Origin: a virus
Lineage: Duplodnaviria > Caudoviricetes
Reading direction: 5' to 3' (one strand)
IMG/VR virus record: IMGVR_UViG_3300014169_000010
Coordinates: 1 to 48,471 of that record
DNA length: 48,471 nucleotides
The translations under genes and the position numbers were made by a program. The notes below the pieces were generated by a model. That model saw only the letters and a list, made by a program, of their open reading frames with translations. It did no database searches and had not been told where the DNA came from. Positions 26,010-48,471 of this stretch are shown piece after piece. Position 1 is the stretch's first letter, and each line of letters begins with the position of its first letter.

Positions 26010-26683
26010 TGTCCGGTCAGGCGCAGGCGTTGCGCGGCGAACATCATCGGAGCCTCGTACTTGTGGCCGCTATCCGAAAGGTGGCATGAGATCTGGTGGT
26101 TCGTCGGGAGCGGCGGCGCTTCCTTGAAGCTGTAGGTGCTGCCCATCGAGTACCGCGAGTCGTCAACGATGGGAACGCGGCGCCTCGCCATCACCAGAGC
26201 GACCCATTGATCTTCCAGTTGCTCGCTGCCAATGTCCGCCGCCAGAATCAGGTCGGTGGCCCTCGGCGAGAGCCAGTAGCCAGGACCGCCATGGACGAAA
26301 TCGCACCCGCGGCATCCCTTCACGCCCTTGTTGCCGACGTAATCGCCCTTTTCGAAGCCACTGTTGAGCAGCCGTTCGGTGTCAATATAGGTGTCGGTAA
26401 AGCATTGGAAAATATAATCGTAGCCGCGCTTCCGCGCCCAGCGATGGCCTTCTTTCGTCTTGAACGGCAGCGAAAGATAATTGTCGGCCACGGGCAGCAC
26501 GATCTCATCCGGTGCCGGCTTAAACGGAACTTCGCCCGGCATATACGTCCCCGGCGGATTGCGCTGGCCGAGGATGAAGAAGAAGGGGATGGCGCTGTTT
26601 TTCCCCCACGTCTCGCGGATCGCCTGGTTCAGATGGTTGTCGGCATCCTTGCGGCACGAACTGACTAGGATGACTGGCCTCAT
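26006..26683 (-). CDS. GT31 (beta-1,3-glycosyltransferase/Fringe)-like glycosyltransferase
   Basis: AIRETWG, DNY.SLP.KT, YDYIF, GGPGYWLS and EDQWV motifs; ATG 26683 coupled to the upstream stop. Confidence 0.75.
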   Translation of the reverse strand: MRPVILVSSCRKDADNHLNQAIRETWGKNSAIPFFFILGQRNPPGTYMPGEVPFKPAPDEIVLPVADNYLSLPFKTKEGHRWARKRGYDYIFQCFTDTYIDTERLLNSGFEKGDYVGNKGVKGCRGCDFVHGGPGYWLSPRATDLILAADIGSEQLEDQWVALVMARRRVPIVDDSRYSMGSTYSFKEAPPLPTNHQISCHLSDSGHKYEAPMMFAAQRLRLTGQ

Positions 26684-27429: not shown

Positions 27430-28309
27430 TCGCCTTCACCTTCACGGATGGGAACGAATCGCGCAGAATTCGCTCCATTCCAATTTCGGCGATGAAGCCC
27501 AGGTCTTGTCGCGCTTTCGACGGGTCGCTCACGATGGTTTTAGCGTCGCCCGGCCGCGCCGGAACATACACCGGCTCCGTGCCCAGCATGGCGCAGACTT
27601 CGTTCATGGATGTGAGCTTGCCCGTCGCCACGTCGTAGGCTTCGCCCGGCGTTCCTTTGGTGAGCGCCAGTTCGAAAGCGCGGGCAACGTCGGCCGCGTG
27701 GATGAAATCGCGCGTCTGCGTGCCGTCGCCCGTGATCTTGAAATGGCCTTGCTTCTCGAACGCGATGTCCATTCCGGCGAAGGCGCACGGCTGGTATTCG
27801 GTGCGCGATTGCCCGTCGCCGGCAATGTTGCAGGGACGCAGCGCGACCGCGCTGACTCCCATGCGGGCGTAGGCTTTCACCAGAAGTTCGGCGGCCACCT
27901 TTGTCGCCTTGTAAACCGTCATGTCAGGGCAGAGCACGATATTGCTGCTGCAGACCACGACGCGCTTGATCTTCTCCGGATTCTGCCGCGCGATTTCGAG
28001 GACGTTCAGAGTGCCGCCGACATTCACGTCCCAGGCCAGCTTCGGATTGTCCTGGCAGGTGAGATTACGGCCGAGCGCGGCCAGGTGGATGATGGCATCG
28101 TATGGGTCGCACAGCGCGACCGATGCAAGCTGCTCGAAGTTGGTCACGTCGCCGGGAATGTGCGCAAAGTTTCCGTCCGCGCCGCACAGCATTTCGCCGT
28201 TGTCGAACGCGCGAACGTAGTGTCCGCTATTTTCGAGGAGTTTTACGACGTGCCGGCCGAGGAAGCCCGCCCCGCCGGTCACCAAAACCTTTTTCAGAAA
28301 TTCGGGCAT
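27422..28309 (-). CDS. NAD-dependent NDP-sugar epimerase/dehydratase (extended SDR)
   Basis: VLVTGGAGFLG, IHLAA, YKATK catalytic motif, GDGTQTRDFIH. Confidence 0.95.
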   Translation of the reverse strand: MPEFLKKVLVTGGAGFLGRHVVKLLENSGHYVRAFDNGEMLCGADGNFAHIPGDVTNFEQLASVALCDPYDAIIHLAALGRNLTCQDNPKLAWDVNVGGTLNVLEIARQNPEKIKRVVVCSSNIVLCPDMTVYKATKVAAELLVKAYARMGVSAVALRPCNIAGDGQSRTEYQPCAFAGMDIAFEKQGHFKITGDGTQTRDFIHAADVARAFELALTKGTPGEAYDVATGKLTSMNEVCAMLGTEPVYVPARPGDAKTIVSDPSKARQDLGFIAEIGMERILRDSFPSVKVKANA

Positions 28310-29058
28310 CCCGTTCCCTCCCAAAGAAGTTTCAGATCTCCGGCATTGAAATATGCGCGAAGGCGGTCGAGCGTGACGCCGTACTTTTCGGCGAACACCA
28401 GCAGCACATCGTCCGGCTTTTTCCAGTCAGGACCGCCGGCGCGCTTGAATGTCGTCGGACCGCCGCCGGGATGGGCTTCGTGCAGCACGGTCACCGCATT
28501 GGTGACGGCGCACTTGTATCCCGCGAACTCCGCGCGGACGCAATAATCGAAATCGTCGCCAAAGGATGTGAAGCGCTCATCCCACTCGCCGACGGCGTTC
28601 AGGCACTCCCGCTTGAGGTACACGCAGGGAAACCACATATCGACCGGCGGAACGTAATCGCACTCTGAGAGCGGATTCGCCAGCGGCGCACTGGCGCGGC
28701 CTTGCAGCCGCGGCGAAAGGATCCCGACATCGGGATGCTCATAGGCAACCGCCTGCAGCCGCTCGACGACATTGGCATCCAGAAAGCGGATGTCGTCGCC
28801 GCAATACAAAATGTCGCAATCGGGGTAAGCGGCCGAAGCCGCCCTTACGCCCAGATTGGCGTTACGCGCCATGGCAAAGGACGTTGGCGCCGCGACTGTG
28901 AGCCAGCCAGGCGTTTCTATCGGCCCAGGCCATTTTTCATCGCCAGGGTCGAGCACCAGAATCTTGGGCGCATTGGGAGCGAACCGTTCCGCGCTTTCGA
29001 GAAAGGCGCGGAATATCTCCCAATAGCGGGAAAGCACGACGATGGCGACAGGTTTCAT
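28294..29058 (-). CDS. GT2-like glycosyltransferase
   Basis: A.NANLG, ILY..DDI and VG.WDERF..FGDDFDYC.R....GY motifs. Confidence 0.85.
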   Translation of the reverse strand: MKPVAIVVLSRYWEIFRAFLESAERFAPNAPKILVLDPGDEKWPGPIETPGWLTVAAPTSFAMARNANLGVRAASAAYPDCDILYCGDDIRFLDANVVERLQAVAYEHPDVGILSPRLQGRASAPLANPLSECDYVPPVDMWFPCVYLKRECLNAVGEWDERFTSFGDDFDYCVRAEFAGYKCAVTNAVTVLHEAHPGGGPTTFKRAGGPDWKKPDDVLLVFAEKYGVTLDRLRAYFNAGDLKLLWEGTGCPNF

Positions 29059-29083
29059 AATAAAAATAATAAAAATTATTCCA

Positions 29084-29137
29084 TTCATCGCCGCAGTGCC
29101 GGGGCAGGTTCTCCCCGGCAATGCTGATGGCGATGAA
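29084..29137 (-). terminator. Strong hairpin after the major capsid gene (terminator/attenuator)
   Basis: TTCATCGCC/GGCGATGAA outer and TGCCGGGG/CCCCGGCA inner stems, followed by an AT-rich tract. Confidence 0.6.
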
Positions 29138-29143
29138 ACTGGC

Positions 29144-30445
29144 TTAGGACGCCGAGTTGGCGAACGTCTTGACGGCGTTCGGGTTGAGGATGCGACCGTC
29201 ATGCCGCGAGAAGGCCAGGAAGGTGACCTGACCGAGCAGGGCATACAGTTCGACGAGGCGCACGATGGTGATGTCGCGGCAATCGCGGATCACGTACTTG
29301 CTGAAATCGCCGAACGCGACCGACGTGGCATTGGCAGCCATCGCGGGCATGTCCTGGTTGATCTCGTAGGCGTAGCCGTCGATGGTGTCGGGCACGGGGT
29401 TTGCCATGCCAGCCAGCGCGGGTTGCCACAACATGCGGCCCGTGGTGTCCTTGAGCTTTTTCAGGACTTTCAAGGTGGAATCGGCAAACATCCACTTCGC
29501 GTTCTTGGTGCGGTATGCCGGGTCCACGGAGTGCTCAAGGTTGTACAGATCGTCGGTGATGATCGACGTGGTTTCGCCAGTCGCGCCGGTGGTGCCGAGG
29601 TCGGCGCCGACGGTTACGCCTTGCGGCTGCCCCGTGCCCGTTCCCACCGTGAAGTGGTTATTGGTGATACGGCCAATGCGGACGGCCAACAGTTCGGCAA
29701 TCAGGCTGTCGATGTCGAAGAAGCTGTCTTGCAGCAATTCGACTGACACCGGAATGTACTTCGAGCTGTATTTGTAGGCCGTGAAGGTCACCTGCCCGAA
29801 CGCAAGATCCTGTTCGGTGGTGGTGACGTTTTCTCCGATGATCACGCCGCTGTTCGCGGTGTCATCGACCGTCGGCCAGGGAATCGACCGGCCATCGGGC
29901 GTCGGGAAGATGCGCGAGACTGCCCGCATTCCGCCGTATGCCTTGAGGAAGGTTTCGAGCAAGCCGCTGAATCCCGTCGGGACCAGGTAGCCGCCCTGCG
30001 ATCCGGTGCCCACATCCTGTGCGGCGCGGATTTCGACCGGCAAGCCGGCATCAATGGCCCGACCGTCCAAACTGCGGCGGCTGGTGGCCATGACCTGCTT
30101 CTGTTGCAGCGACATCCCGGCTTCGCCGAAACGCAGCCAGTTGGTGAAGGCAGTCTTGCGCTGCTTTTCGAATTCCTCTGTGCTGAGGGTTTCGGTGCCA
30201 GCCTTCGGGCGCACTTCCGTGGGAGCGGTAATCACGCGGCCCTCGAGTTCGGCGGCCTGCGCTTCCAGTTTTTCCCGGCGGTTAACTTCGGCGCGGGTTT
30301 CGGTGTAATCCGCGTCCATCCGGTCCCACGCTTCGTTCTCTTCCTTGGTCATCTTGCGGCCTTCGGAATCCGCTTTCTTGGTGAGAGCGGTCATTTTGTC
30401 GTGCAGGTTGCCAAGTTGCTGTTTGAGTTCTTTGACTGTCGTCAT
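29144..30445 (-). CDS. Major capsid protein (HK97 fold, N-terminal delta domain)
   Basis: GGYLVP, VS.ELLQDS, G.GTGQP.G, LK.LKD..GR.LWQP and FGDFS.Y.IRD motifs; start MTTVKEL with AAGGA RBS. Confidence 0.97.
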   Translation of the reverse strand: MTTVKELKQQLGNLHDKMTALTKKADSEGRKMTKEENEAWDRMDADYTETRAEVNRREKLEAQAAELEGRVITAPTEVRPKAGTETLSTEEFEKQRKTAFTNWLRFGEAGMSLQQKQVMATSRRSLDGRAIDAGLPVEIRAAQDVGTGSQGGYLVPTGFSGLLETFLKAYGGMRAVSRIFPTPDGRSIPWPTVDDTANSGVIIGENVTTTEQDLAFGQVTFTAYKYSSKYIPVSVELLQDSFFDIDSLIAELLAVRIGRITNNHFTVGTGTGQPQGVTVGADLGTTGATGETTSIITDDLYNLEHSVDPAYRTKNAKWMFADSTLKVLKKLKDTTGRMLWQPALAGMANPVPDTIDGYAYEINQDMPAMAANATSVAFGDFSKYVIRDCRDITIVRLVELYALLGQVTFLAFSRHDGRILNPNAVKTFANSAS

Positions 30446-35192: not shown

Positions 35193-35577
35193 CAGTTTTC
35201 AGCTTTGGCATTACGGAAAGGTCGATGTAGGGCCCTTCGATGCCGTCCGGCTGCAGATAGAACGACCAAGCGAGTCGCCCACAATCCTTTTGCGTGGGAT
35301 TCGGGTCCCCTTCTCGCATCCTCGCAGTCCCGATGATCCGTTCCGCAGTTAGCCGGATTTGCTCGGCCACATAATGCGCGTCCGGCGCAGAATCACGCCA
35401 TGGAACGGCGATCAGGTCAATATCCGTTTTGAGGCTTCCGTGTACGGCCAGGGCATAGCCGCATTGCCGCGCCACAAAGCGCAACGCGGGCATCATCGCT
35501 TCCAGAAATTCGCGCGTCCGGTCCGCGTAATTGCACGGACGTTCCTTACTGCTTTGGCAGCTTTGACAGGTGCTCAC
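35182..35577 (-). CDS. Hypothetical protein with a nucleotidyltransferase-like motif
   Basis: GYALAVHGSLKTDIDLIAVPW. Confidence 0.55.
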   Translation of the reverse strand: MSTCQSCQSSKERPCNYADRTREFLEAMMPALRFVARQCGYALAVHGSLKTDIDLIAVPWRDSAPDAHYVAEQIRLTAERIIGTARMREGDPNPTQKDCGRLAWSFYLQPDGIEGPYIDLSVMPKLKTDGT

Positions 35578-36278
35578 AGCAATATCACTCCGCGCGTCTC
35601 ATAGACGCTGCCGCCGCTGGCATCGGGATTCGCGCTTGCCCGTCCCACGGCCATAATGCTGGCCTGCGCCGGATCGATCTTCCGCGGACTATTCGGGTTC
35701 CCCGGCTTCTTCGTGGATAGATTGCCCTTCGGGTCCGACTCGACTACCAGGTTATCCACCGCGAACGTCAGCAGCGGATTGTTGCCGTGAGCAAATTCCC
35801 GTCCGAGGATCTGCCGCTGGAATTCCTTGATGGGGCCCGTCATCGAAAACGAACCCTGCCCGTGCTGCACCATGTTCACGCCCTCAGCGATTAGCCGCTG
35901 CACAAGTTGCGTGATGTACGCCTTATCGTAGGCGAGCTCCATGATGTTGTAATCCGCGTGGCATTGCAGGATGTCCTCTTCCAGAATGTCGTAGCGGGTG
36001 ACCGGGCCCGGCATCAGCTTGAGAAAGCCACCTTTAACCCAATCGTCGTAGCCGAATTTTTCTTTCAGGACGCGATGGTGTTCGACGTCCGCCGGCGCCC
36101 ATGCCCACACCAGCAGCACCGCCTTTTCCACGCCCTTCTGGACCGGGAAGTAGAGCGCCAGCGAACTTAAATCGTTGACGACGCCGCCGTCGAATCCGCC
36201 GAAGCAGGTGCATCCCTTAAGCGCTTCAATCTTGTGCTGGCGCCACGCCGCCGGATTGCCAATGTAGGGAGCCGGCAT
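35574..36278 (-). CDS. terL: Terminase large subunit, C-terminal nuclease part
   Basis: L.G..C.GG.D....DLS, AYD, QG...M..P.K, H..NP.L and KID motifs. Confidence 0.9.
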   Translation of the reverse strand: MPAPYIGNPAAWRQHKIEALKGCTCFGGFDGGVVNDLSSLALYFPVQKGVEKAVLLVWAWAPADVEHHRVLKEKFGYDDWVKGGFLKLMPGPVTRYDILEEDILQCHADYNIMELAYDKAYITQLVQRLIAEGVNMVQHGQGSFSMTGPIKEFQRQILGREFAHGNNPLLTFAVDNLVVESDPKGNLSTKKPGNPNSPRKIDPAQASIMAVGRASANPDASGGSVYETRGVILL

Positions 36279-36313
36279 GTGGTTGTAGCGTTATAACGTA
36301 ATAATGCGGTTAT

Positions 36314-36514
36314 TTACTGCGTCCGCGCCAGCACCGCCGGATAGCGGTCCGGGTCGCGCAACTCCGTAATCTTCGTCAGTTCGCGCCGCCAATTCTCATA
36401 TGGCGCGGCGAGAATCCCCATCGAGGAGCACCACGCGACATAGGCCGCATACCGCCGCGATTCGCCAGCGGTTCGCAGCAGCGGGTCTTCGAATTTAAGG
36501 GTTATATGATTCAA
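36314..36514 (-). CDS. Small hypothetical protein between the two terL halves
   Basis: 66 aa ORF with TTG start. Confidence 0.5.
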   Translation of the reverse strand: MNHITLKFEDPLLRTAGESRRYAAYVAWCSSMGILAAPYENWRRELTKITELRDPDRYPAVLARTQ

Positions 36515-36547
36515 GTTGCACTCTCATCGGCATTTAGATGGTCTTCA

Positions 36548-37729
36548 CTAAGCCGCCTCTTCCCACGCGCATGCCCGCCACGCATCCGGCGAGATAAATC
36601 GATCTTCCGATTGCGTCCAGGTGCAGAAATTTAATCGCAGCACCAGGTTGCGGCCGGATGGCTTATCCATCGCGTCCTTCACCTGATTGCGCAGATACTC
36701 TTTGGTGACAATCACATCCAGCGCCGGATTCGTCTTAATCCAGCAAGCCTCATCCAGCCAGTTGTCACAGTTGTCACAAGTGGGCATGTCCTTGCCCTTT
36801 TGCCGGCACTCAGGGCAAACGTCAAGGTGGCAAACATAGGCAAAGAACGTATCTTTTTTGATGACTCTCTCGAGCACGCGCCGCGCGAGCTCATGATCTT
36901 CCCAGCAGATCGTCTCGCGGTCCCATCCGCTATTCGTGATTTTGAACGCCAACGGCTGCCGGCGCGCCTTGAATCCGGCAATCAGCTTGCCGACGACCTG
37001 CGGATCCTTGTGTTCGTGCTCCTCATCCACGATGACGATGTGCGGCCGTGGGCCGTCCAGCGTATCGCGGTCTGCCGCGACCGGGCGCATGAACGACGCA
37101 CCGTGGCTCAGGTTGCCGCTGGTGTACTTGTTGCTGCACCCGAACTTTTTGATCAGCTTGCGCAGTTCAGGACAGCCATCCACCATGGTGGCCGCATCCT
37201 TGAACGCGATCGCCGCCTGGTCTTTGGTCGGGGCGACAATGTAAACTTCCGCCGCCGGCTCCTCATCCGCGATGATGCCGTAAATGCCCACGCCCGCCGC
37301 CAGCGGCGTCTTGCGGTTGCCCTTCGCAATCTCGATATACGACTCGGTGAATCGCCGGAAGCCATCCGCGCGTTTCTTCCATCCGAAGAGGTTGGCGACA
37401 ATGAATTGTTCGTAGCCGATCAGCGGCTTTGTGTGGAACGCCAGGTCGCGGTAGAACTTGATGATGGCGACGGCGCCGCCCTGGTCGAAGTAATACGGAA
37501 ATACTGCTGCTTGAGCGCTCACGGATGACAAATCCGCATTCGCCGCAGTCTCCGACTGCTTTAAGTCATTCAGGAAGCGCTCCACCGCGAGGAACACCAT
37601 CCTGCCGGTTGGAACATTTCCGGTGAGCACATCCAGCGAATACCGCGCCACCGTCGGGATGCGGCTGCAATGCTTTGCCAGCAACTTCTCGGCGACGGCC
37701 GTTTTCCATTCGCTCTTATGCACTATCAA
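36548..37729 (-). CDS. terL: Terminase large subunit, N-terminal ATPase part
   Basis: LFGW...G.RRF, Walker A-like AKGNRKT, Walker B IVDEEHEH, R.QPL...ITN.G and W.K.NP motifs. Confidence 0.92.
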   Translation of the reverse strand: MIVHKSEWKTAVAEKLLAKHCSRIPTVARYSLDVLTGNVPTGRMVFLAVERFLNDLKQSETAANADLSSVSAQAAVFPYYFDQGGAVAIIKFYRDLAFHTKPLIGYEQFIVANLFGWKKRADGFRRFTESYIEIAKGNRKTPLAAGVGIYGIIADEEPAAEVYIVAPTKDQAAIAFKDAATMVDGCPELRKLIKKFGCSNKYTSGNLSHGASFMRPVAADRDTLDGPRPHIVIVDEEHEHKDPQVVGKLIAGFKARRQPLAFKITNSGWDRETICWEDHELARRVLERVIKKDTFFAYVCHLDVCPECRQKGKDMPTCDNCDNWLDEACWIKTNPALDVIVTKEYLRNQVKDAMDKPSGRNLVLRLNFCTWTQSEDRFISPDAWRACAWEEAA

Positions 37730-39168: not shown

Positions 39169-39632
39169 CTACGAATTACTTGGGAACATTTCGGTTTGAG
39201 AAACCGGCCGGAAGCCTGCCTTATTTCGAATGATCGAGCCCACCCGGTCGCCCAGCTCCTCTTCATTCGGCCGTAGGTACCATAGGGGCGTTTCTAGCGA
39301 TTTCCAGCCTAACCAGCCCATCAACTCGTCTACCGTGGCTCCCTCGCGCAACAAATGCTTACAAATGGTGTGTTTTAGGGTGTGGCTCTTGCACTTGCGC
39401 CGCGGGATCCCGGCGGCCATGGCATATCGGTGAACCACCCTCCAAAATTGGGACCTATGGATCGGGAAAAGGCGGTCATCGGCTTGTTTTGGTGAAAATG
39501 CATCAATCTCCGTAGATTGTTGCATTTTTAGGGGGTTAACCCGCTTTCGAGATCCCTTTTTGGCCGCGCCTTTGACTCCGTAGTCCGCTCGATCCGCAAA
39601 CCACCCCTCAATCGCCGCCCGTTCGTTGAAGA
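39169..39632 (-). pseudogene. Tyrosine recombinase C-terminal half (5'-truncated)
   Basis: LFP..R, HTLKHT, LGW.SL.T..Y catalytic Tyr; no N-terminal GLR..E segment found in any frame upstream. Confidence 0.75.
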
Positions 39633-39639
39633 AAAAAAA

Positions 39640-39725
39640 CTTTTGCTGCGAAAGTGTGCGCGTGAGACTCAATCGGTCGCGGCGTTTTGGCCGGCAGAGA
39701 TTTTGACCGCCTCCCCTATCCCATT
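39640..39725 (-). other. Putative cos (packaging) region
   Basis: Minus strand GGGGAGGCGGTCAAAATCTCTG...CGCGACCG...CACGCGCACACTTTCGC resembles, from memory, cos regions upstream of P27-type TerS. Confidence 0.4.
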
Positions 39726-39907
39726 GAAAATATAGGGACTTACAACACAAAACGCCGTCGAAAAACTGGCCGCCGGAACTGTCCGGAAAATCGGTTGCGA
39801 ATCGGTTGCGAATCGCCCGCCGATTGGCCGCCTATTCCCGTGGCCGCGCCGACCGCGCCGATCGCGCCGGAATCATGCCTGGTTTTTTCCACAGATATTT
39901 TTTTCCA

Positions 39908-39954
39908 ATTGTGACGTACGTCACAATGTTATTTAACCTATCCATGATAGGTTA
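39908..39954. promoter_or_regulatory. Two adjacent operator-like palindromes upstream of the plus-strand block
   Basis: Perfect 20-bp ATTGTGACGTACGTCACAAT (TGTGA-N6-TCACA) at 39908-39927; TAACCTATC-N3-GATAGGTTA at 39934-39954. Confidence 0.7.
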
Positions 39955-39980
39955 TCAGCGTAGCAAGAAAGAGAGACTAT

Positions 39981-40685
39981 ATGGAACTGTTCGCCGATTC
40001 GATTCCTTTGCCAGATGCGTCGCCGATGGCGCAAGCTGGATTCGATTTTCCCGTGCCACTAGCAGAGAAGTACCGACCGCGCCGCATTGCCGATTTTATC
40101 GGCATTGAAAAAGCGAAAAAGATTGCCGCGAACCTTGTCCGCCGTCCCATGCTCGGCAGCGCATGGTTCTTCCTCGGCAAGAGCGGAACTGGCAAGACTT
40201 CGCTTGCACTCGCCATTGCCAATGAGATGCCAGCAGAGCTACACCATATACCAGCGAAGGAATGTACTCTCGAAGCGGTGCAAGCCGTATGCCAGCAATG
40301 CTATTTCATGCCGCGTATGCTGGATAACTTCCGTCCGCTTCCCGCTCACATTGTCCTAATAGATGAAGCGGATCAAATGTCCTATCCGGCGCAGCTTGCG
40401 CTATTGTCCAAGCTGGACGCGACGGCGTTTCCGCCGAATACGATCTTTATCTTTACGGGAAACGATACCGCGAACCTAGAGGCGCGTTTCATGTCCCGTG
40501 TTCGCGTAGTGGAATTTTCCAGCTATGGCATAGCTGGCGAAACGTCCGCGTTACTCCAGCGCATCTGGACGGCGGAAACGCAAAACGCTGGCACCTTGCC
40601 AAACTTCGCCCGCATGGTGAAGGATTCAGCCAATAACGTCCGCGATGCCTTGATGAATCTCGAAGTGGAAATTATGTCCGCCTAG
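39981..40685 (+). CDS. Clamp-loader-clade AAA+ ATPase (RFC/DnaX/RarA-like, short)
   Basis: LAEKYRP, Walker A GKSGTGKT, Walker B LIDEAD, SR arginine finger, VRDAL sensor. Confidence 0.88.
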   Translation: MELFADSIPLPDASPMAQAGFDFPVPLAEKYRPRRIADFIGIEKAKKIAANLVRRPMLGSAWFFLGKSGTGKTSLALAIANEMPAELHHIPAKECTLEAVQAVCQQCYFMPRMLDNFRPLPAHIVLIDEADQMSYPAQLALLSKLDATAFPPNTIFIFTGNDTANLEARFMSRVRVVEFSSYGIAGETSALLQRIWTAETQNAGTLPNFARMVKDSANNVRDALMNLEVEIMSA

Positions 40686-40744
40686 TTCCTGAATACCGCG
40701 TCCGGCGCAGCTTGGCGCGGTCTTGAGCAACTAGCTCACGGAGC
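40679..40744 (+). repeat. Intergenic palindromic repeat, copy 1
   Basis: CGCCTAGTTCCTGAATACCGCGTCCGGCGCAGCTTGGCGCGGTCTTGAGCAACTAGCTCACGGAG. Confidence 0.95.
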
Positions 40745-40752
40745 AAAACACA

Positions 40753-41106
40753 ATGGAAAAAATACCAGTTCACGGTTTGGGATTGCATCTTCTACCTAAT
40801 CCCGCGAAAACATGGTCATTCACTGGCACCGTTCCAATCTCCCTAGTCTATCGGCGCAAAGATGGACTGCCGCTATCCGAGATTGATGCCACGAACATTC
40901 GACAGTTTGGCGCGGGATTGTTTCGCGCCGAGATTGGATGCCGCGTGTTCGCCACAAGGCAAGATGCCGTAGATGCCGCTGGTGCGATTGGATGCGCCGT
41001 TTGCTCCATTTCCACTTGCGCGTGTGCCAAGTATGACCCAGCGCGATTGGATGCGATGCAGCAGGTTATGCAATCGCGCCGCAGTCAATCGCCTAACTTC
41101 GCCTAG
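40753..41106 (+). CDS. Hypothetical protein (cassette between repeats 1 and 2)
   Basis: GGAG RBS supplied by repeat 1; TAG stop lies inside repeat 2. Confidence 0.8.
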   Translation: MEKIPVHGLGLHLLPNPAKTWSFTGTVPISLVYRRKDGLPLSEIDATNIRQFGAGLFRAEIGCRVFATRQDAVDAAGAIGCAVCSISTCACAKYDPARLDAMQQVMQSRRSQSPNFA

Positions 41107-41164
41107 TTCCTGAATACCGCGTCCGGCGCAGTTTGGCGCGGTCTTGAGCAACTAGCTCACGGAG
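41100..41164 (+). repeat. Intergenic palindromic repeat, copy 2
   Basis: Differs from copy 1 by one loop base (CAGTTTGG vs CAGCTTGG). Confidence 0.95.
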
Positions 41165-41173
41165 AAAACAACA

Positions 41174-41590
41174 ATGGCAAAACTTTCAGCGCATGGCCGC
41201 GAACTGCTACGGCTTGAGCATGAGCGGGAAATACCGGACGCGGAAGATCGCCTCTGCAATTGGGAACGGAAAACCCGCGCGTACATGGCGGACGGCAAAA
41301 TTCTAGAAAAATGGGATGTACGATTCAAACCAGATTCCCTAGACCTAGCCAATGGCCGCGCCGCTGGCCGCCTACATTCCTACGGTTGGAAATTGACGGC
41401 AAAACTCAAGACTGGATTCGCAATGGAGCAACACGCCGCAAAAGTTTTGCGCCTGTTAGCGTCCGCGCCGGAACGGGCAAAATGGCGAATCGTTACGCCA
41501 GCGTCCGCGTATGCCCACTTGCTCAAGCTGGAAATTCCGCCAGCGTCCGCGAATCCGGCGCGGCAAGAGGCATTGCCATTAGTCGCATAG
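41174..41590 (+). CDS. Hypothetical protein (cassette between repeats 2 and 3)
   Basis: MAKLSAHGRELLR...; RBS from repeat 2, stop inside repeat 3. Confidence 0.8.
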   Translation: MAKLSAHGRELLRLEHEREIPDAEDRLCNWERKTRAYMADGKILEKWDVRFKPDSLDLANGRAAGRLHSYGWKLTAKLKTGFAMEQHAAKVLRLLASAPERAKWRIVTPASAYAHLLKLEIPPASANPARQEALPLVA

Positions 41591-41663
41591 TTCCTGAATA
41601 CCGCGTCCGGCGCAGCTTGTCCTAGAAACGCTTGGCGCGGTCTTGAGCAACTAGCTACAGGAG
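41584..41663 (+). repeat. Intergenic palindromic repeat, copy 3 (15-nt loop insertion)
   Basis: Same arms; TCCTAGAAACGCTTG inserted in the apical loop. Confidence 0.95.
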
Positions 41664-41672
41664 CACAACACC

Positions 41673-41849
41673 ATGATGCTCGAAGCGTACGACACGGACG
41701 TTGAAATTCTAATCCGCTTTGACCACGAACCGACCGCGCCGTTTTCCGTACTGCGGCAATCGCCCGTGGTAATAACCACCGTTTTGCATCAGCGAATTTT
41801 CGACCGCGAATTCTATTCCCAGAGCGGACAGGAGATTGAACCCCGATGA
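41673..41849 (+). CDS. Small hypothetical protein (58 aa)
   Basis: Not in the ORF track; MMLEAYDTDVEILIRFDHEP...; AGGAG RBS; ATGA overlap with the next gene. Confidence 0.65.
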   Translation: MMLEAYDTDVEILIRFDHEPTAPFSVLRQSPVVITTVLHQRIFDREFYSQSGQEIEPR

Positions 41850-42133
41850 ATACCACCCCGAACCAGGCACCAGGCACGCCGCGCCGCCCCATGACGCGCG
41901 AAATCCTACTTGAGATGATCCGCGCCAACATGCTTCGCTACGCCGATCAACTGGAAAGCATTTCCCGCTTCCACTGGACGCTGCCGGAAATGGAAGGCTA
42001 TCTTCCCGCCTTCACCTTGTCCGACTCGCAACGCGCCGAAGGCATCGCCTTCGCCCGCGCCATGCGCCGCAAGTATCAGGGCGAAGCATGGAAGCACGAG
42101 CACGAAAACCGCAGCGCAAACCGCGCCGCCTAG
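41846..42133 (+). CDS. Hypothetical protein
   Basis: Coupled start; stop lies inside repeat 4. Confidence 0.7.
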   Translation: MNTTPNQAPGTPRRPMTREILLEMIRANMLRYADQLESISRFHWTLPEMEGYLPAFTLSDSQRAEGIAFARAMRRKYQGEAWKHEHENRSANRAA

Positions 42134-42197
42134 CCGCTGAAACCCGCGTCCGGCAAACCAGCTTGGCGCGGCTTTGAACGGCTTAGAAAAAGAGGAG
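42127..42197 (+). repeat. Intergenic palindromic repeat, copy 4 (diverged)
   Basis: CGCCTAGCCGCTGAAACCCGCGTCCGGCAAACCAGCTTGGCGCGGCTTTGAACGGCTTAG...GAGGAG. Confidence 0.85.
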
Positions 42198-42204
42198 TAC
42201 AAAC

Positions 42205-42441
42205 ATGCCAGTCCTACTACACGCCGCCGCTGGACTCGACGCCTGCGATGCCGCCTGCTATATGGCGAAGCACCAGGCTTGCCGCTGTATTTGTGGCGGC
42301 ATCAATCACGGCGTAGGACTCAAACGCGCCGCCGAAAATACGCGCCGCTATAAAGAACGGCACGGCCAAACCTCTTTATTAGACCTCATGGCGCAGACCG
42401 CGCCAACCGAAGCACCGGAGCAAACCCCATGCCCACGATAA
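42205..42441 (+). CDS. Small Cys/His putative Zn-binding protein
   Basis: CDAACY.A...C.C.CGG.NHG. Confidence 0.75.
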   Translation: MPVLLHAAAGLDACDAACYMAKHQACRCICGGINHGVGLKRAAENTRRYKERHGQTSLLDLMAQTAPTEAPEQTPCPR

Positions 42442-44480
42442 CCGCGACCTACTCGCCCGAAGATAACAAACTGCGCATCTATGCCACTTCGCGCCTAGAC
42501 CCCGACACATACGCGAAGGTAAAAGCCGCTGGTTTTATATGGGCGCCGAAACAACAATTATTTGTCGCGCCTAGCTGGACGCCCAGCCGCGCCGATCTGT
42601 GCGAAGAACTTGCCGGCCAGATTGACGACGAGGATACTTCCCTCGTTGACCGCGCCGAGGAACGCGCCGACCGCTTCGCCGACTACAGCGAAAGCCGAAC
42701 CCAGGACGCGAACGCCGCCCATAAAGCCGTTCACGCTATCGCCGACAATATCCCGCTAGGGCAGCCCATTCTAGTCGGACACCACAGCGAACGCCACGCC
42801 CGACGCGATGCCGCGAAAATCGAAAATGGAATGCGCCGCGCCGTAAAGATGTGGGAGACGGCGCAATACTGGAAAGACCGCGCAGCCGGAGCCATCGCAG
42901 CCGCGAAATATAAGGAACGTCCCGACGTTCGCGCCCGACGCATCAAGGGACTGGAATCCGACATTCGCGTCTATCGCGCAAAATTCACGCCGGACCCGAA
43001 GCAGCCGCCGATTCTACAGCACCGCTGGAATGACCCTTCCCGCGACGACGCAACGCGAATCCCGCATGTATGGTGCGCCCCGCGAGGCGGCCGAGGCGGA
43101 ATGTGGACGCCCGTTGACGATCTGCCGGGAATCGAAAAGCACTATAGCCGCTGGATTGCCCACTGCGAATTGCGCTTGGAGTACGAACGCGCCATGCTGC
43201 AAGAGCAGGGAGCGACCGACCTCCTAAAGCCGAAGCCGCGCAGCGCAGCCGCGCAATTGCCGCTATGCAACTATGCCGCACCCGGCGGCCTTGAGATCGA
43301 GAACATCTACCACCGCGGCGAAATGCTCCATTACCCGCAAGTGGAAATGACCCAGGCCGAATACGCCAAGATCAACGCCGACTATAAAGCGACTCGCGTA
43401 GTAGGCAACTCGCACCGCGTACGCACGGCCATGCAAAAACACACTTTAGTGTGTGTGTTCCTCACCGACGCCAAGACGCACGAGCCGCCAGCCGCGCAAC
43501 CGAAGCCGGAAGCCGAACCGCGCTGCATCCCCGCGCCCTATATCGCGCCAGCTCCCGACCCAATCGAAAGTTACGGAATTTACGTCGGCAGGAGATTAAT
43601 CAAAAACTTCTGCACGGAGCAATTAGCTAATAGCGCGCTCGCCGAATATCTAGACGGGCACCAGCACTACGGCGCACCGTCCGCAACGCCGGAAGTACGT
43701 CCAATCCCACGCGCCGCCGACTACCAGGCCATGCGCGAAACCCTCAAAGCCGGAGTGCAGATTGTCACCGCGCCGCAGCTATTCCCGACGCCGCCCGAAC
43801 TCGCCGACCGCATGGTGCGCGAAGCCGACATCCAGCCCGGTCACAGCGTCTTGGAACCGTCAGCCGGGACCGGACGCATCATTTATGCCCTCGCCCGCGC
43901 CGGAGAACTCCGCGACCGCCCCGTTACCGCCGTCGAGATCAACTACAGCATGGCCGATGCACTGCGCCGCAGCTTCCCCGAAATGGAAACCGCCCAAGCC
44001 GATTTTCTGGACGTGAAAGGACGCCAGTTTGACCGCATCCTTATGAATCCGCCCTTCGGCGACGCGCAGGACATCAAGCACATCACCCACGCGCTGGGAT
44101 TGCTGGCACCAGGCGGAAAACTTGTTGCCGTCTGCGCCAACGGCCCACGCCAGCAGGAGCGACTCCGCCCACTGGTAGAGCAATACGGCGGCACTTGGGA
44201 AGAACTCCCCGCCGACACGTTCAAGGAATCCGGCACCAGCGTACGCACCGTGCTTCTCACGATTGACGCCGACGACGCGCCAGCCGAGCCCGACGACGAC
44301 GACGAAAGCAACCGCATGGATAACGAGCCGGAGCCGGAGCCAACCGAGCCGGACGCAACCGAAGAAGAAACCGAGCCGGAACCCGTAGCGGTTTTAACAA
44401 ATAACGACCCACAACCCGCCGATTTTGCCCTTACCGGAGAATCGGCACCCAGGCATTTTGCACAGATGAATCTATTTTGA
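42429..44480 (+). CDS. DUF3560-domain protein fused to an amino (N6-adenine-type) DNA methyltransferase
   Basis: ATYSPEDNKLR.Y and GQPILVGHHSER.AR (DUF3560); FPTP, LEPSAGTG and MNPPF (MTase). Confidence 0.88.
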   Translation: MPTITATYSPEDNKLRIYATSRLDPDTYAKVKAAGFIWAPKQQLFVAPSWTPSRADLCEELAGQIDDEDTSLVDRAEERADRFADYSESRTQDANAAHKAVHAIADNIPLGQPILVGHHSERHARRDAAKIENGMRRAVKMWETAQYWKDRAAGAIAAAKYKERPDVRARRIKGLESDIRVYRAKFTPDPKQPPILQHRWNDPSRDDATRIPHVWCAPRGGRGGMWTPVDDLPGIEKHYSRWIAHCELRLEYERAMLQEQGATDLLKPKPRSAAAQLPLCNYAAPGGLEIENIYHRGEMLHYPQVEMTQAEYAKINADYKATRVVGNSHRVRTAMQKHTLVCVFLTDAKTHEPPAAQPKPEAEPRCIPAPYIAPAPDPIESYGIYVGRRLIKNFCTEQLANSALAEYLDGHQHYGAPSATPEVRPIPRAADYQAMRETLKAGVQIVTAPQLFPTPPELADRMVREADIQPGHSVLEPSAGTGRIIYALARAGELRDRPVTAVEINYSMADALRRSFPEMETAQADFLDVKGRQFDRILMNPPFGDAQDIKHITHALGLLAPGGKLVAVCANGPRQQERLRPLVEQYGGTWEELPADTFKESGTSVRTVLLTIDADDAPAEPDDDDESNRMDNEPEPEPTEPDATEEETEPEPVAVLTNNDPQPADFALTGESAPRHFAQMNLF

Positions 44481-44499
44481 ACCGAGGAGAAACCACCCC

Positions 44500-44709
44500 A
44501 TGAGAAAGCCAAAAGACCGCGCCGAACGCATCGCAAAACTATGGCTGGAATCGTCCATTGGCCCGGAGCCAGATTTTATTATCGATCTGCTGACCGACAT
44601 TCGCCACTACTGCAATAGGTTCGGCATTGACTTCGCCCATCAGGACGCCATCGCCTATTCGCATTACATCGAGGAAAACGGCAAGCACCGCGAAGAGCTA
44701 GAAAGCTAG
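44500..44709 (+). CDS. Small hypothetical protein
   Basis: GAGGAG RBS; DLL.D.RH.C...GIDF motif. Confidence 0.75.
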   Translation: MRKPKDRAERIAKLWLESSIGPEPDFIIDLLTDIRHYCNRFGIDFAHQDAIAYSHYIEENGKHREELES

Positions 44710-44743
44710 CAAAATAGCACGACACAAAAAAGGAGAAACCCAA

Positions 44744-46057
44744 ATGGCAACGCAATTCGCAATTCCACTGACCGAACCGCCCGCGCCGTCCTATCAGGAA
44801 GAACGCACCGAGCTTTACTTCCGCGAAGGCAGCAGCGACAAGGTTTACCACTGCAACCTAACCCAATCCGAAGCCGGATGGACGTTCCTTGTCGAACGCG
44901 GCCCCAGGCGCGGCCCGATCATCCACGACGTGAAACTTTCCGGTGTTTCTTATGAAGCAGCGAAAAAACTGTACGACAAGACCGTGCGCGGCCAACTGTC
45001 GAAAGGCTACCAAGACCCTCGCAACTCCCCTCAAAATGGGGAGGAGAAAAAACCCGCAGCGAGTTCAGGCGCGATTGACTCTTTGCTTATGCAACGGCCC
45101 GTAGCCGTTCGTCCTGAAAAAGCCCCACCCCTCACATCTTCACGCGGCCCGGTGTCCCACGAAATCGTATTCCAGCCGGAGCTTCTGACCCGCGTCACGG
45201 AAAAGGAAGCGCAAGACCTGGCGCGCAATCCGCAATACTTTTTCCAGACCAAACAGGATGGCGACCGCCTCACCATCCGCGTCGCCGGCAGCCTCATTCA
45301 CGGCTTTAACAAGCTGGGACAGATCGTCCGGCTAGACCAGCGATTGCACGATGCCATCCACCGCCTGACCGTCCCCAATGGCATTACCTCGCTCACCATG
45401 GACGGCGAATGGGAAGCGGACGGCTTCCACGCCTGGGATTTAATCGAATGCCGCCGCGCTTCGGATACCGAAGAAATGCCGTCACTCCGGCACATTGCCT
45501 ACGAATATCGCCTGGAAACGCTGGAAGTGTTTCTATCCGACCTGGTGCCGGAACTTGCCGGCCTGTTGCATCTGACCTACACGGCGCGATCGACAGAAGA
45601 GAAGCAGGCACTCCTCGCCCGCACCGATCTCGAAGGCGTCGCCATCAAATTGCGCTCGGCATCCTTCCGCCCCGGCCGTAACGGCCAGCACAAAAAGTAC
45701 AAGCATGAGCAGGACGCCAGCTTCATCGTCGGCCCGAAACCGCCGGACAAATTAAACGACGGCAAGCGCAGCGTCGCGCTCTACATTCACGACCCCGAAG
45801 CCAAATGGCATAGCGACTGGCAGTTGGAAGGCTCTGCCAGCCTGCGCTACGTCTGCACCGTGAAGGTGCCGGAGAAGTACGAAATGCCAGGCGTCATGGG
45901 CACCGTGATCGACGTGCGCTACCTCTACGCCTACCACGGCGGAGGCATCGCCCAGCCCTGCTACTTCGGCAAGGTGCGGAACGATGTCCGCCGCGAGGAT
46001 TGCACCATTGCCCAACTGAAATTCAAACGCGAAGGCGACACCGACGACGAAGCCTAG
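44744..46057 (+). CDS. WGR-like domain fused to an ATP-dependent DNA/RNA ligase-like domain
   Basis: LYFREGSSDKVY...KGY (WGR-like); KQDG, DGE, AWD, EG..IK and KYK ligase motifs; C-terminal OB-like VRYLYA. Confidence 0.85.
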   Translation: MATQFAIPLTEPPAPSYQEERTELYFREGSSDKVYHCNLTQSEAGWTFLVERGPRRGPIIHDVKLSGVSYEAAKKLYDKTVRGQLSKGYQDPRNSPQNGEEKKPAASSGAIDSLLMQRPVAVRPEKAPPLTSSRGPVSHEIVFQPELLTRVTEKEAQDLARNPQYFFQTKQDGDRLTIRVAGSLIHGFNKLGQIVRLDQRLHDAIHRLTVPNGITSLTMDGEWEADGFHAWDLIECRRASDTEEMPSLRHIAYEYRLETLEVFLSDLVPELAGLLHLTYTARSTEEKQALLARTDLEGVAIKLRSASFRPGRNGQHKKYKHEQDASFIVGPKPPDKLNDGKRSVALYIHDPEAKWHSDWQLEGSASLRYVCTVKVPEKYEMPGVMGTVIDVRYLYAYHGGGIAQPCYFGKVRNDVRREDCTIAQLKFKREGDTDDEA

Positions 46058-46157
46058 CCCTTGAGCGTAGGGCACCGTGCGGACTGCTTTTAATCAAAAT
46101 AAAAGCCGCCCACTGTGCCCCTCGTTGAACGACTATACACAAAGGAGGAATAACCCG

Positions 46158-46526
46158 GTGCACAACACTATCGGAAAGCCTGCGCCGCTGTCCGGCGGCG
46201 CGGGCGCCTTGCAGGAGCAAAAACGCTTTCTCGCGGGAATGTTCACGCGAGCGGTTTTAATCAGAACAATGGAACACGCGGTCACGAACGCTGCGCTGAT
46301 GCTGGCCTTTACGCTACTATGGGACGTGGTAAGCGAACCCATCGAACGCGCGAAGGCCCGCGTCCCCGTGGCCATCATCGCGGCTTTCCTCTACAACTAC
46401 TGCCACGCTGGCGCGCATGAAGCCTTACACGCTGGCTTGCACTATTTAATGCACACCGCTCACGGCCTATGCCGCAGGACGCTGCACCGCGGCGCAGGCT
46501 ACGAGAAAGGAACCCATGCCCACTAA
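46158..46526 (+). CDS. Hypothetical hydrophobic protein
   Basis: AAGGAGG RBS with GTG at 46158; two hydrophobic stretches. Confidence 0.55.
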   Translation: MHNTIGKPAPLSGGAGALQEQKRFLAGMFTRAVLIRTMEHAVTNAALMLAFTLLWDVVSEPIERAKARVPVAIIAAFLYNYCHAGAHEALHAGLHYLMHTAHGLCRRTLHRGAGYEKGTHAH

Positions 46527-46812
46527 ACCGCATTGCAAAAAGCACCCGAAGGTAAAGCCGATCGTGATGAAAATATGCCCGGCTTGCGTGGGCTCGGCCA
46601 CCAGCGAAGCCAAAGCGCGATCGAGCGCGGCCAACGGCAAACTTGGCGGACGTCCACGCCTGCCCGAACACCTGCCATCATGCCAGCGGACGAAAGAAGA
46701 AACGCCGCGAGGCACCCTGATTATCGCCGATCAGAATTGCCCAGGCTGCGCGGCGCGAAACAAAGCGGCGCGCCAAAGGCATTTCGAGGAAAGCGAACTC
46801 AGCCGCAGGTAG
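46516..46812 (+). CDS. Small basic putative DNA-binding protein
   Basis: C..H, CPAC, TSEAKA.S..ANGKLGGRPR and CPGC motifs. Confidence 0.7.
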   Translation: MPTKPHCKKHPKVKPIVMKICPACVGSATSEAKARSSAANGKLGGRPRLPEHLPSCQRTKEETPRGTLIIADQNCPGCAARNKAARQRHFEESELSRR

Positions 46813-47101
46813 CCGCCGAGGTTTTCTCCGCGCACTCTGCGCCCTCGGCGGCGACAGGTTTTTCGATCTCCACGAAATTGAACTGGCCAGCGTCGCGCAG
46901 CGGCACCAAGCGAAACTCCCGGCCCGGAAAAAACGCTTCCACGCGCTCGGCTTCCGTTTCCAGCAGCATATCCACGCCGTCCGGCGTGAGCCGACTCCCA
47001 GGCGCAGCATGGACCGTGCGCCGCAGCCGCTTGCCATCCAGAAAAATGACGCACAATTTTATGTTCCGCACCAGCCCTAAGCTGGTAGGAGAAACCCTCA
47101 T
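46799..47101 (-). CDS. Hypothetical protein, paralog of 38274..38606
   Basis: GGAG RBS, ATG at 47101; motif alignment with the paralog. Confidence 0.7.
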   Translation of the reverse strand: MRVSPTSLGLVRNIKLCVIFLDGKRLRRTVHAAPGSRLTPDGVDMLLETEAERVEAFFPGREFRLVPLRDAGQFNFVEIEKPVAAEGAECAEKTSAATCG

Positions 47102-47112
47102 TTTCGACTCCG

Positions 47113-47376
47113 CTATTTTCCCGCTTTCAAAACAATCGGCCCGAGCCAGGAGATTATGCCCCAGGCGACAACCATCCCCGCCGTGAGCACCCGGATCCAG
47201 ATTCGCTGCACGTCCACCTTGCGTTCCAGCCGGCACTTCATGTCAAAGGCGCGCATGACATCCAGCGCGAGTTGCTCCGGCTTGCGTTGCAGGTAGTTGC
47301 GGATCCATGCTTCCGGAAGCCGCCGCGGGTTTTCGTAATTCTGAAAACCGCTGCCGTCTTTACAGTCTTTATTCAT
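47113..47376 (-). CDS. Hypothetical protein with a C-terminal TM helix
   Basis: IWIRVLTAGMVVAWGIISWLGPIVL. Confidence 0.6.
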   Translation of the reverse strand: MNKDCKDGSGFQNYENPRRLPEAWIRNYLQRKPEQLALDVMRAFDMKCRLERKVDVQRIWIRVLTAGMVVAWGIISWLGPIVLKAGK

Positions 47377-47560
47377 AAGAACTTCCCGCCGCTGACCGTT
47401 CCTCCCTTGATGGAAACAGCAGGTAGCCGTCAAACACCACCAGCGTGAGTATCAGCGTCATTTCGCCGGAAATCGCCTTTGCCGCCATTGCCCGTATATG
47501 CGCCACATCGGCCGCGCATACGGCAAAGCTTACAAACCGCTCAAGCGCGTCCGATACCAC
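47369..47560 (-). CDS. Small hypothetical protein
   Basis: Fills the gap in the operon direction; no recognisable motif. Confidence 0.35.
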   Translation of the reverse strand: MVSDALERFVSFAVCAADVAHIRAMAAKAISGEMTLILTLVVFDGYLLFPSREERSAAGSSYE

Positions 47561-47566
47561 AAATGC

Positions 47567-48061
47567 CTAAGACCCCACCGCATAGCTGCCAAACGCCAGC
47601 GGCGATCGATCATCGTATGTCCCCAATTCCCGCCGGCCGATCGCGCGGATCTTCTGTTGGGCCCGTTTCACCACAGCGCGGTTTGCCGGCCGGTCCGGCT
47701 CATCTTCGGTGATGCCGACATTCGCCTTCATCTCCGCCGTGGATATTGTCGGCTTCGACCCGGGCGACTCGCTCACCTGAAAAGTGCGCTGGCTGCGCGG
47801 CGATCGATCGAACAGGCGAAAGGTTTTGCCGTTGTTTTCATACTTGCCGCGGCCCTCGCGGCGCATGCCCCGCGCCTGGGCGCGCGTCAAAACACAGCAT
47901 GGTGTGTCCGTGGCGTCATCCTGGTCAAAATAGAAGGTATTAATCGTCGGTTCTTCGGACTGCACCGGCGCAACTGCAGGTGCCGGCACGTAGCGGCCGT
48001 CCGCTTTGGACAGCACGCAGCCGCGCCGCCGGCACTCCCGGTTGCAGATGTGTTGAGACAT
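47567..48061 (-). CDS. Hypothetical protein
   Basis: 164 aa ORF with N-terminal H.C...C...C; co-oriented with neighbours. Confidence 0.6.
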   Translation of the reverse strand: MSQHICNRECRRRGCVLSKADGRYVPAPAVAPVQSEEPTINTFYFDQDDATDTPCCVLTRAQARGMRREGRGKYENNGKTFRLFDRSPRSQRTFQVSESPGSKPTISTAEMKANVGITEDEPDRPANRAVVKRAQQKIRAIGRRELGTYDDRSPLAFGSYAVGS

Positions 48062-48302
48062 AAGAATTTAAGTGGGAACCGCGCGGGAAAGCCAAGATAT
48101 TGCGGACGCTGGAAAACGCCAGGACTGTGCTTTGGTTGCCGGGCATCCACCGGCTCTTGCAGGGAACCGCGCGTTTGGGAACCGGCTTTGCCGTGAATTG
48201 GACGAAACGGCAGAGGATCCGGCGAAGTTCTCCTAGATTCTGCCTGTTTTCCGAGAGGATAGCCTGATTACGAAGGTGCCGCAACTACCATATTTGATAC
48301 CC

Positions 48303-48471
48303 TCAGTAATTCCACGGCTCAGGCAGCAGCCCGTACGGCAGGTAGAGCGGATGCGCCGGCGAACCGTCCTTGTTTTTGTTTAAGCAATCCAGCCGCAGCC
48401 CCAGCGTGTCGCGGAGGAGCCAGCCGCGGTCGGTCTTGAGCTTTCCCCAGCAGGCGACAACCTTTTGCACC
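48303..48471 (-). CDS. DUF1643-family protein, C-terminal part (5' end outside the window)
   Basis: Hand-translated ...VVACWG...LDCLNKNKDGSPAHPLYLPY... Confidence 0.7.
   Translation of the reverse strand, partial: VQKVVACWGKLKTDRGWLLRDTLGLRLDCLNKNKDGSPAHPLYLPYGLLPEPWNY

Follow-up and report, generated by a model that had tools for sequence, protein, structure and literature searches.

A conserved stop-codon hairpin between small genes of a phage operon: a probable variant of known mRNA punctuation

Introduction

Clustered hammerhead ribozymes are described as flanking variable prophage genes and cleaving in vitro, with a proposed role in cutting long transcripts up into short mRNAs (PMC3088659); a 2019 review leaves the purpose of such ribozymes unresolved (PMC6765202). 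Substrates of E. coli RNase III typically span two helical turns, and internal loops can restrict the enzyme to a single bond, so that a hairpin remains as protection at the 3' end (PMC1540722); the sites lack a strong common consensus (PMC8708148). At the DNA level, PeSL repeats of phages were proposed as sites of homologous exchange (PMC2839356), and integron attC sites are characterized by a RYYYAAC / GTTRRRY core with a conserved AAC, extrahelical bases, an unpaired central spacer and a bottom-strand G·T excess (PMC5027507). For the DUF1874 RNA motif an attC role was raised and left open (PMC5737381). Here we analyse a hairpin repeated between the small genes of an operon in the virus record IMGVR_UViG_3300014169_000010 (Duplodnaviria; Caudoviricetes), whose full 48,471-nucleotide (nt) stretch is called the window. 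The hairpin is a real structured repeat, apparently undescribed, and most probably represents a variant of the mRNA punctuation known from phages. An original prediction made from the letters alone had read it as a possible non-canonical attC-like site of cassette capture, with T7-like RNA processing and homologous gene exchange as alternatives; these alternatives fit the comparative evidence better. The hairpin likely marks where a long message is cut and protected, rather than an integron-like site of DNA swapping.

Results

A structured repeat with a conserved fold

The four imperfect palindromes reported for the window are present (Table 1), and their shared core pattern matched there four times, compared with no match in 100 shuffles. 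Each copy starts in the TAG of an open reading frame (ORF) whose last residue is Ala, and GGAG and ATG come after the copy; the loop base of copy 2, the 15-nt loop insertion of copy 3 and the paired changes of copy 4 are also as described. Folded as sense-strand RNA, copies 1, 3 and 4 gave z-scores of -3.6, -3.1 and -3.6. Other details had to be revised. The T that was thought to be bulged pairs with G as a T·G wobble, so that the arms are symmetric and the stem is bulge-free. The units are bounded by repeats as proposed, the third consisting of two ORFs (41673-41849, 41846-42133), and a longer fifth variant behind the ligase-like gene (46054-46135) had been missed. This long-stem variant was assigned by eye through the common basal box and is not matched by our covariance model R1. 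At the place of the probable relic ahead of the ligase gene (44696..44709), one contig of sequencing run X2 carries a hairpin with family-like terminal letters.

A metagenome scan yielded 49 stretches, and viral scans added three loci (L017, L146, L149). Six chance-match metagenome contigs, the window's own record, an identical contig, loci that overlapped or duplicated others, one half repeat and copies cut at an edge were left out. After this filtering the family comprised 78 copies, 67 of them distinct, in 27 oriented loci (phage, integrated-element and metagenome). In viral contigs a fixed-loop pattern found nothing and a core-only pattern gave 11 stretches judged to be chance matches; nine of these and L145, L148, L165, L171, L178, L185, L192 and L197 were dropped because they had E>=0.16 or no match with R1.

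The stem is an ungapped register of 22 columns in which 16-20 pairs form in all 67 distinct copies, and the loop varies from 6 to 22 nt while stem length and register stay fixed. In an alignment of 50 copies both sides change in 11 of the 22 pairs, with two-sided changes in 90 cells compared with 29 +/- 4 in shuffles; since the copies are mutually related, these counts are not probabilities. Pairing reached 82% in the true register versus 30-49% in all six registers slid by 1-3 columns, one stem column holds four pair types, and most covarying columns had been left free by the search pattern. The claim that variation respects the fold holds strongly across the family. Three non-canonical pairs are nearly invariant (G·G in 60, C·U in 66 and U·C in 45 of the 67 copies), and in many copies both arms read GAGCA from the G·G onwards. 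Variants that keep the basal box and the G·G with a changed upper stem occur in L180, L166, L158, L182 and at window 46054-46135.

The position of the hairpin relative to genes is equally regular. Its first stem bases, TAG, are the in-frame stop of the upstream gene in 57 of 63 scorable copies, several exceptions having a relic TAG a few bases upstream, and a loose Shine-Dalgarno-plus-start pattern lies within 45 nt downstream in 65 of 67. Ala before the stop is a feature of the four window copies and holds in only 35 of 67 family-wide, and the CTAG ends belong to the window fold, the right end in the family being more often CTAA. All copies found are in the sense of their genes, including those of L149, where two divergent hairpin arrays (L149:2604-6058), headed by the ATPase and by DUF932 respectively, surround a short non-coding region. 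For 49 of the 67 copies the fold is more stable as sense RNA; when folded as DNA, only 24 favour the top strand. Identity is 0.875 within arrays and 0.768 between them, and the array cargo includes DUF932, LPD29, a MoxR-like ATPase with DUF3150 and DUF2201, and ligases.

A known identity would have removed the novelty of the repeat, and none was found. Rfam covariance models gave no match at E<=5 in window 39500-48471, none at the gathering cut-off in 20 repeat loci and none on the repeat in ten loci at E<=5. A U-tract after the stem, as in an intrinsic terminator, occurs in 0 of 67 copies in sense and 4 of 67 in antisense. As to chromosomal behaviour of the repetitive extragenic palindrome (REP) or miniature inverted-repeat transposable element (MITE) kind, a pattern scan of 401 host-class genomes met one genome with two copies, both after the ATPase; it superseded an RNA-model scan of 151 genomes that scored only 37 candidates per genome and is a weak negative. 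Annotated phages and plasmids gave no useful match to the repeat (one 30-nt match, E 0.7). A full-text literature search found no description of the motif within its coverage, which excludes the supplement of PMC5737381, where non-Rfam motifs may be listed. In L172, two weak matches resembling the c-di-GMP-I riboswitch were noted at 254-301 and 475-522 (22-23 bits, cut-off 35), one of them right behind a hairpin copy.

Fit to RNase III-type processing

By a narrow measure we favour the view that the hairpin is a stem in the sense-strand RNA which host RNase III would cut, as in T7 early mRNA. The 22-column stem, in sense orientation, has the helix length of about two turns of an RNase III-type site. 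A cut would divide the message of the likely early operon into short mRNAs, and a cut on one side only would leave a protective 3' hairpin on the upstream message. Sense RNA would be the working form, with the centre of the cut probably near pairs 11-12 and one helical turn on each side, and a ribosome terminating on UAG may open the base of the stem and so gate the cut. The strand evidence leans modestly to sense RNA. The near-identical copies are likely also to provide homology for gene exchange: ordinary recombination between them would delete or swap whole units, as with PeSLs, beside illegitimate joins. Two further functions were considered and rejected, stop-codon readthrough because the downstream start occurs in all three frames, and a hidden promoter, no promoter-like site being found at the five copies.

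The slot behind the ATPase stop, which copy 1 occupies in the window, was inspected in 57 related loci, with a hammerhead descriptor applied to all 57 and Rfam scans to 35. The hairpin occupies this slot in three ATPase loci, two of them in one genome, and a ribozyme or hammerhead-like core occupies it in three others: a Twister-P5 13 nt past the stop in L027 (43 bits, Rfam cut-off 37.6), and type II hammerhead cores found by the descriptor 6 and 8 nt past the stop in L096 and L021. L030, L034, L047 and L101 have further ribozymes or hammerhead-like cores at other sites; none was found in 20 hairpin-bearing loci or in the window. In a quick ATPase tree the rows with a hairpin occupy three places, and those with a ribozyme likewise occupy three, although a single origin may underlie this. 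The simplest protein-dependent counterpart of such a ribozyme is an RNase III site.

Several observations weigh against cutting by RNase III. A simplified proximal box, with the G-C pair scored in its known strand orientation, fitted 44 of 67 copies in the best of 35 registers; the rule was loose and the distal box unscored, and one box fit is expected by chance with so many registers. Box position 2 of this register is occupied by an E. coli antideterminant in 13 of 67 copies, and the G·G falls at position 3. The stem is two-fold symmetric about a pair, which differs from the staggered cut of RNase III. The sense wobble bias falls from 151:53 to 65:49 without two pattern-fixed columns and is reversed in 4 of 14 groups, the window included. 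The RNA runs consist of contigs, in which RNA ends are invisible, and no cut was observed. As to the ATPase slot, the hammerheads of L096 and L021 reach 35.7 and 25.3 bits in Rfam, below the cut-off of 37; 51 of the 57 loci have neither element there, many without a long stem, and most other slots hold different hairpins or none. A common slot does not establish a common function.

Other structured elements were seen in operons of this type. L026 and L034/L035, from two phages, share a structured-looking motif of about 60 nt right after the ATPase stop, a candidate intergenic RNA with no Rfam match at E<=1. In L018, L019, L020, L022, L031, L036, L043, L045 and L049 a short GC-rich hairpin with a ribosome binding site (RBS) is repeated ahead of the ATPase and later genes, as a second, unrelated repeat grammar. 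L044 has, 1.1-5.1 kb upstream of its ATPase, four repeats of promoter-like hexamers, stem and RBS, close to PeSL anatomy.

Gain and loss of repeat-bounded units

The units between repeats do move: gene content varies among relatives, and the gene that directly follows the ATPase is not the same in all lineages. Two complete repeat-bounded units of L194/L196 are absent from L161, which amounts to two exact repeat-to-repeat indels. Gene order is kept in 139 of 152 comparable (non-independent) pairs, and eight of the 13 exceptions concern one module placed before or after the ATPase. Relatives thus differ in content and partly in order, as the original prediction supposed for a mobile system, but their breakpoints do not appear to lie at one fixed repeat position. 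L183 and L190 are 99% alike up to 100 nt past the stem, L176 and L183 rejoin 61 nt past it, and L017 and L170 part 26 nt past it. In L173 and L166 two hairpin types are fused at a short shared sequence (microhomology), L158 carries a half repeat, and several breakpoints between relatives fall inside genes. Likeness between copies fades over 0-7 bases before the TAG. One three-gene module has hairpins in L158 and L167 and none in L183 and L190. The hairpin tracks its upstream gene once and its downstream gene in other cases; across pairs, linkage was above background for the 5' gene in 20 of 28 and for the 3' gene in 21 of 44, the pairs again being non-independent and the counts favouring neither side decisively.

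In runs X1 and X2, one contig each switches to foreign sequence exactly at the T of the TAG of copy 4. Another X2 contig (depth 4.8) leads from the fifth hairpin back to the beginning of the ligase gene; since about 88 of its first bases match nothing here, a strain with a hairpin ahead of the ligase is more likely than a circle. No joint between copies 1-4 is listed in the contigs of four runs, which drop rare forms, and the excised single-cassette circles suggested earlier therefore have this ambiguous ligase joint as their one candidate. The RNA runs X3 and X4 contain parts of the region, including parts outside the operon, and so do not show transcription; an RNA contig that skips 42530-44178 has ends that are not at repeats.

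Two gene ends deserve mention. The 117-amino-acid (aa) ORF ends in PNFA, where 41095-41106 matches an internal ATPase stretch (40596-40607) at 11 of 12 nt; its C-terminal tail is uncovered by any other match, these aligning to residue 98 or earlier, and the PNFA end is possibly a trace of gene-hairpin joining. In L018 another gene ends in a duplicate of the last 13 ATPase codons together with the hairpin (98% over 85 nt; positions 40 nt before and 924 nt after the ATPase stop), which suggests that gene ends are copied together with intergenic elements.

attC features and recombinase genes

The attC core with its conserved AAC was found in 0 of 67 copies, and neither two or three extrahelical bases nor an unpaired central spacer was present, the arms pairing ungapped with 1x1 mismatches. 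The bottom-strand G·T excess is absent, with 151 on the sense strand versus 53 on the bottom strand (65 versus 49 without the two pattern-fixed columns). The tyrosine recombinase adjoining the ATPase is 5'-truncated, its homologs having 259-282 aa. It lacks the N-terminal part with the first catalytic Arg, a motif present in 7/7 aligned homologs; the missing piece was not found elsewhere in the window, and the fragment scores 24 bits against 265 for integron integrase. Its subfamily (window 39169-39750 (-), P0122-P0129) has H-x-L-K-H and W in place of the catalytic R and H usual in tyrosine recombinases.

In 49 loci searched, a match to the window recombinase or to the integrase of L093 was found only in copies of this phage. 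Of three other viral records (31-76% complete), only one has a tyrosine recombinase, and this lies about 16 kb away from the arrays. These negatives concern array neighbourhoods, and an enzyme may act from elsewhere. The integrase gene of L093, 0.4 kb downstream of its single hairpin copy, and the resolvases nearby in L160, L162 and L177 are read as part of integrated elements. Taken with the mostly conserved gene order and the scattered breakpoints, the absence of core, extrahelical bases, bottom-strand bias and an intact recombinase speaks against attC-like site-specific recombination of single-stranded DNA.

The operon and its setting

The head and tail module, on the minus strand, is HK97-like (terminase, portal, Clp protease, capsid, tail tube). 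The hairpins lie in a plus-strand operon, the likely early operon of the phage, in the order AAA+ ATPase, small ORFs, DUF3560-methyltransferase, ligase-like gene and small basic protein (Table 1). A search for a viral locus of the 138-aa gene (41174..41590) found none. The non-coding element between terminase and ATPase is presumably a cos or packaging region, to judge from its resemblance to such regions and from viral contigs that start near the ATPase; this is likely rather than certain. Since this element is conserved and 12 of the 39 best viral loci start 35-432 bases upstream of the ATPase, the operon appears to start near a genome end. In lambda-like fashion that end would enter the cell first; the early operon of T7 also lies at the genome end that enters first. 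The nearest genomic relatives of the window ATPase are mostly from Acidobacteriota and point to such hosts for the hairpin-bearing loci, and the three runs holding at least half of the region are all wetland metagenomes, one of them possibly the source of the record.

Three side observations concern the rest of the window. A glycosyltransferase and epimerase cluster within the head gene module (24957-29244 (-)) suggests virion or DNA glycosylation. The large terminase is split into two ORFs (36548-37729, 35574-36278) with a gap at 36278-36548 (-), and is one ORF in L017. An unrelated strong hairpin at 46810-46856 (z -4.6), also TAG-initiated, lies 3' of the last operon gene.

Table 1. Positions of the hairpins, genes and other elements in the window
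Feature	Position	Strand	Remarks
Hairpin copy 1	40682..40734	+	TAG 40683-40685 is the ATPase stop; R1 64.6 bits
Hairpin copy 2	41103..41155	+	one loop change from copy 1; R1 match
Hairpin copy 3	41587..41654	+	15-nt insertion in loop; R1 match
Hairpin copy 4	42130..42186	+	diverged, paired changes, G·G retained; R1 match
Long-stem variant (fifth hairpin)	46054..46135	+	begins at ligase TAG; shared basal box with G·G, then GGAGG; z -6.1
Probable relic of hairpin 3' end	44696..44709	+	ahead of ligase RBS; suggested by sequence
Conserved non-coding element, terminase-ATPase interval	39630..39720	.	conserved in L175, L194, L183, L190
Inverted repeat, likely promoter region	39935..39953	+	similar dyad in L017; putative operator
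Tyrosine recombinase, 5'-truncated, outside the system	39169..39750	-	lacks first catalytic Arg
Clamp-loader/RarA-like AAA+ ATPase	39981..40685	+	operon gene 1
117-aa ORF	40753..41106	+	~80-aa domain shared with 1000-4000-aa proteins
138-aa ORF, no function assigned	41174..41590	+	11 other homologous clusters
58-aa ORF	41673..41849	+	homologs in L153 and L179 arrays
95-aa ORF	41846..42133	+	homolog directly after ATPase in L017
78-aa Cys-rich ORF	42205..42441	+	homologs in L017, L170, L163, L180
DUF3560 plus methyltransferase	42429..44480	+	hairpin ahead in L163 and L180, none ahead here
69-aa ORF	44500..44709	+	frequent member of such arrays
ATP-dependent DNA ligase-like gene	44744..46057	+	flanked by hairpins in L158, L182, L196
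98-aa basic Cys/His ORF	46516..46812	+	homologs end arrays in L153, L179, L182, L193, L194/L196

Discussion

The readings that compete with an RNase III site differ in what would act on the stem. It may act in RNA uncut, by blocking 3'-5' exonucleases, by pausing or partly terminating transcription, or by binding a protein through the G·G-centred dyad, and so set gene levels. The hairpin does behave as a 3' element in L093, where no RBS follows it, and in L160, where the next RBS is 50 nt away; the GAGCA on both arms and the variants that retain the basal box and G·G alone (L180, L166, L158, L182 and the window) would also suit this role. However, protection needs no fixed register of 22 pairs, none of the 67 copies has a terminator U-tract, and the ribozymes found in that slot suggest cleavage, so that we regard an uncut stem as unlikely, if a serious alternative. 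The shared slot, the near-invariant non-canonical pairs and the imperfect RNase III fit could instead indicate a stem that cuts itself as an undescribed small ribozyme, or one cut by a phage-encoded or other non-RNase III nuclease reading the G·G dyad. This is improbable for a single helix with a variable loop, no conserved unpaired core and a replaceable apical half, with which no nuclease gene was seen travelling.

A non-canonical attC-like site, at which a dedicated enzyme recombines folded single-stranded DNA at a fixed point and so captures or reorders cassettes, would explain the cassette-like layout, the stop-codon overlap, the two exact indels, the 13 reordered pairs, the contig joins at the TAG of copy 4, the X2 back-joint and the top DNA strand being the more stable in so few copies. 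It is judged improbable in view of the missing attC core and bulged bases, the defective adjoining recombinase and the lack of such a gene in the 49 loci beyond copies of this phage and in two of the three other viral records, as well as divergence 26-100 nt past the stem, half repeats, microhomology fusions and a hairpin that tracks now the upstream and now the downstream gene. A MITE-like element inserting at TA or CTAG in stop codons and later kept for an RNA effect, like Correia or ERIC, would account for TA at both ends, the terminal inverted repeats, the stop-codon position and the module found with and without hairpins, and TA-flanked elements have been linked with control by RNase III or RNase E (PMC2229807). 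The single orientation, the restriction to one operon kind and the occurrence in 1 of 401 host-class genomes, there within mobile elements, make it very improbable; moreover, no filled and empty pair with target duplication was found, and copy similarity runs a few bases into the upstream codons. Slightest of all is the chance that the repeats are only homology linkers for gene exchange whose fold has no function: the higher likeness within arrays and the gain and loss of units agree with it, but selection on structure is required to explain the compensatory changes at pattern-free columns, the conserved mismatches and the column with four pair types. We also see some prospect, though rather a poor one, that some undescribed activity acts on the G·G-centred stem, either a new self-cleaving RNA or phage nuclease in place of hammerhead and twister, or integrase-free gene capture at stop codons by a folded strand, possibly with the clamp-loader-like ATPase.

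Why phages place self-cleaving ribozymes between small accessory genes is named an open question in PMC6765202. Depending on the locus, the slot after one conserved gene is empty or is taken by a hammerhead, a twister, this stem or another stem, which offers a natural comparison, with a 54-nt element and 67 natural variants. If RNase III cuts the stem, host-enzyme sites and ribozymes would be interchangeable punctuation of such operons, and the repeats show that signals for expression can also act as joints at which genes are exchanged, with no integrase involved.

Comparison with known systems

The RNase III signals of T7 early mRNA (R1.1 and others) are likewise imperfect stems of about two turns between polycistronic phage genes (PMC1540722, PMC8708148). 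Unlike them, the window stems form a repeated family in one genome, start in stop codons and carry a near-invariant G·G; the family fits the E. coli boxes only partly, and the cut is a predicted one. Clustered hammerhead and twister ribozymes beside prophage genes have the same layout of single genes or short blocks of changing identity with anti-restriction neighbours (PMC3088659, PMC6765202), and ribozymes of that kind occupy the same slot in L021, L027 and L096, whereas the hairpin has no ribozyme core and no Rfam family match. PeSL cassettes of the T4-type phages RB49 and phi1 resemble the locus in having repeats with a stem-loop that run from stop codon to Shine-Dalgarno sequence and bound variable small genes (PMC2839356), and repeat-bounded gene gain and loss is found here as well (L161 versus L194/L196). 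PeSLs have a sigma70 promoter, a terminating stem and demonstrated mini-circles (PMC2839356), whereas promoter consensus and U-tract were not found at these repeats. The integron attC site shares the imperfect 53-68 nt hairpin with a variable loop, one per unit and in one orientation (PMC5027507), but the present repeat is without AAC/GTT core, extrahelical bases, unpaired central spacer, bottom-strand G·T excess or integron integrase. Finally, the DUF1874 RNA motif is a structured motif in consecutive intergenic regions without an integrase (PMC5737381); it is multistem, whereas the window hairpin is a single stem without an Rfam match.

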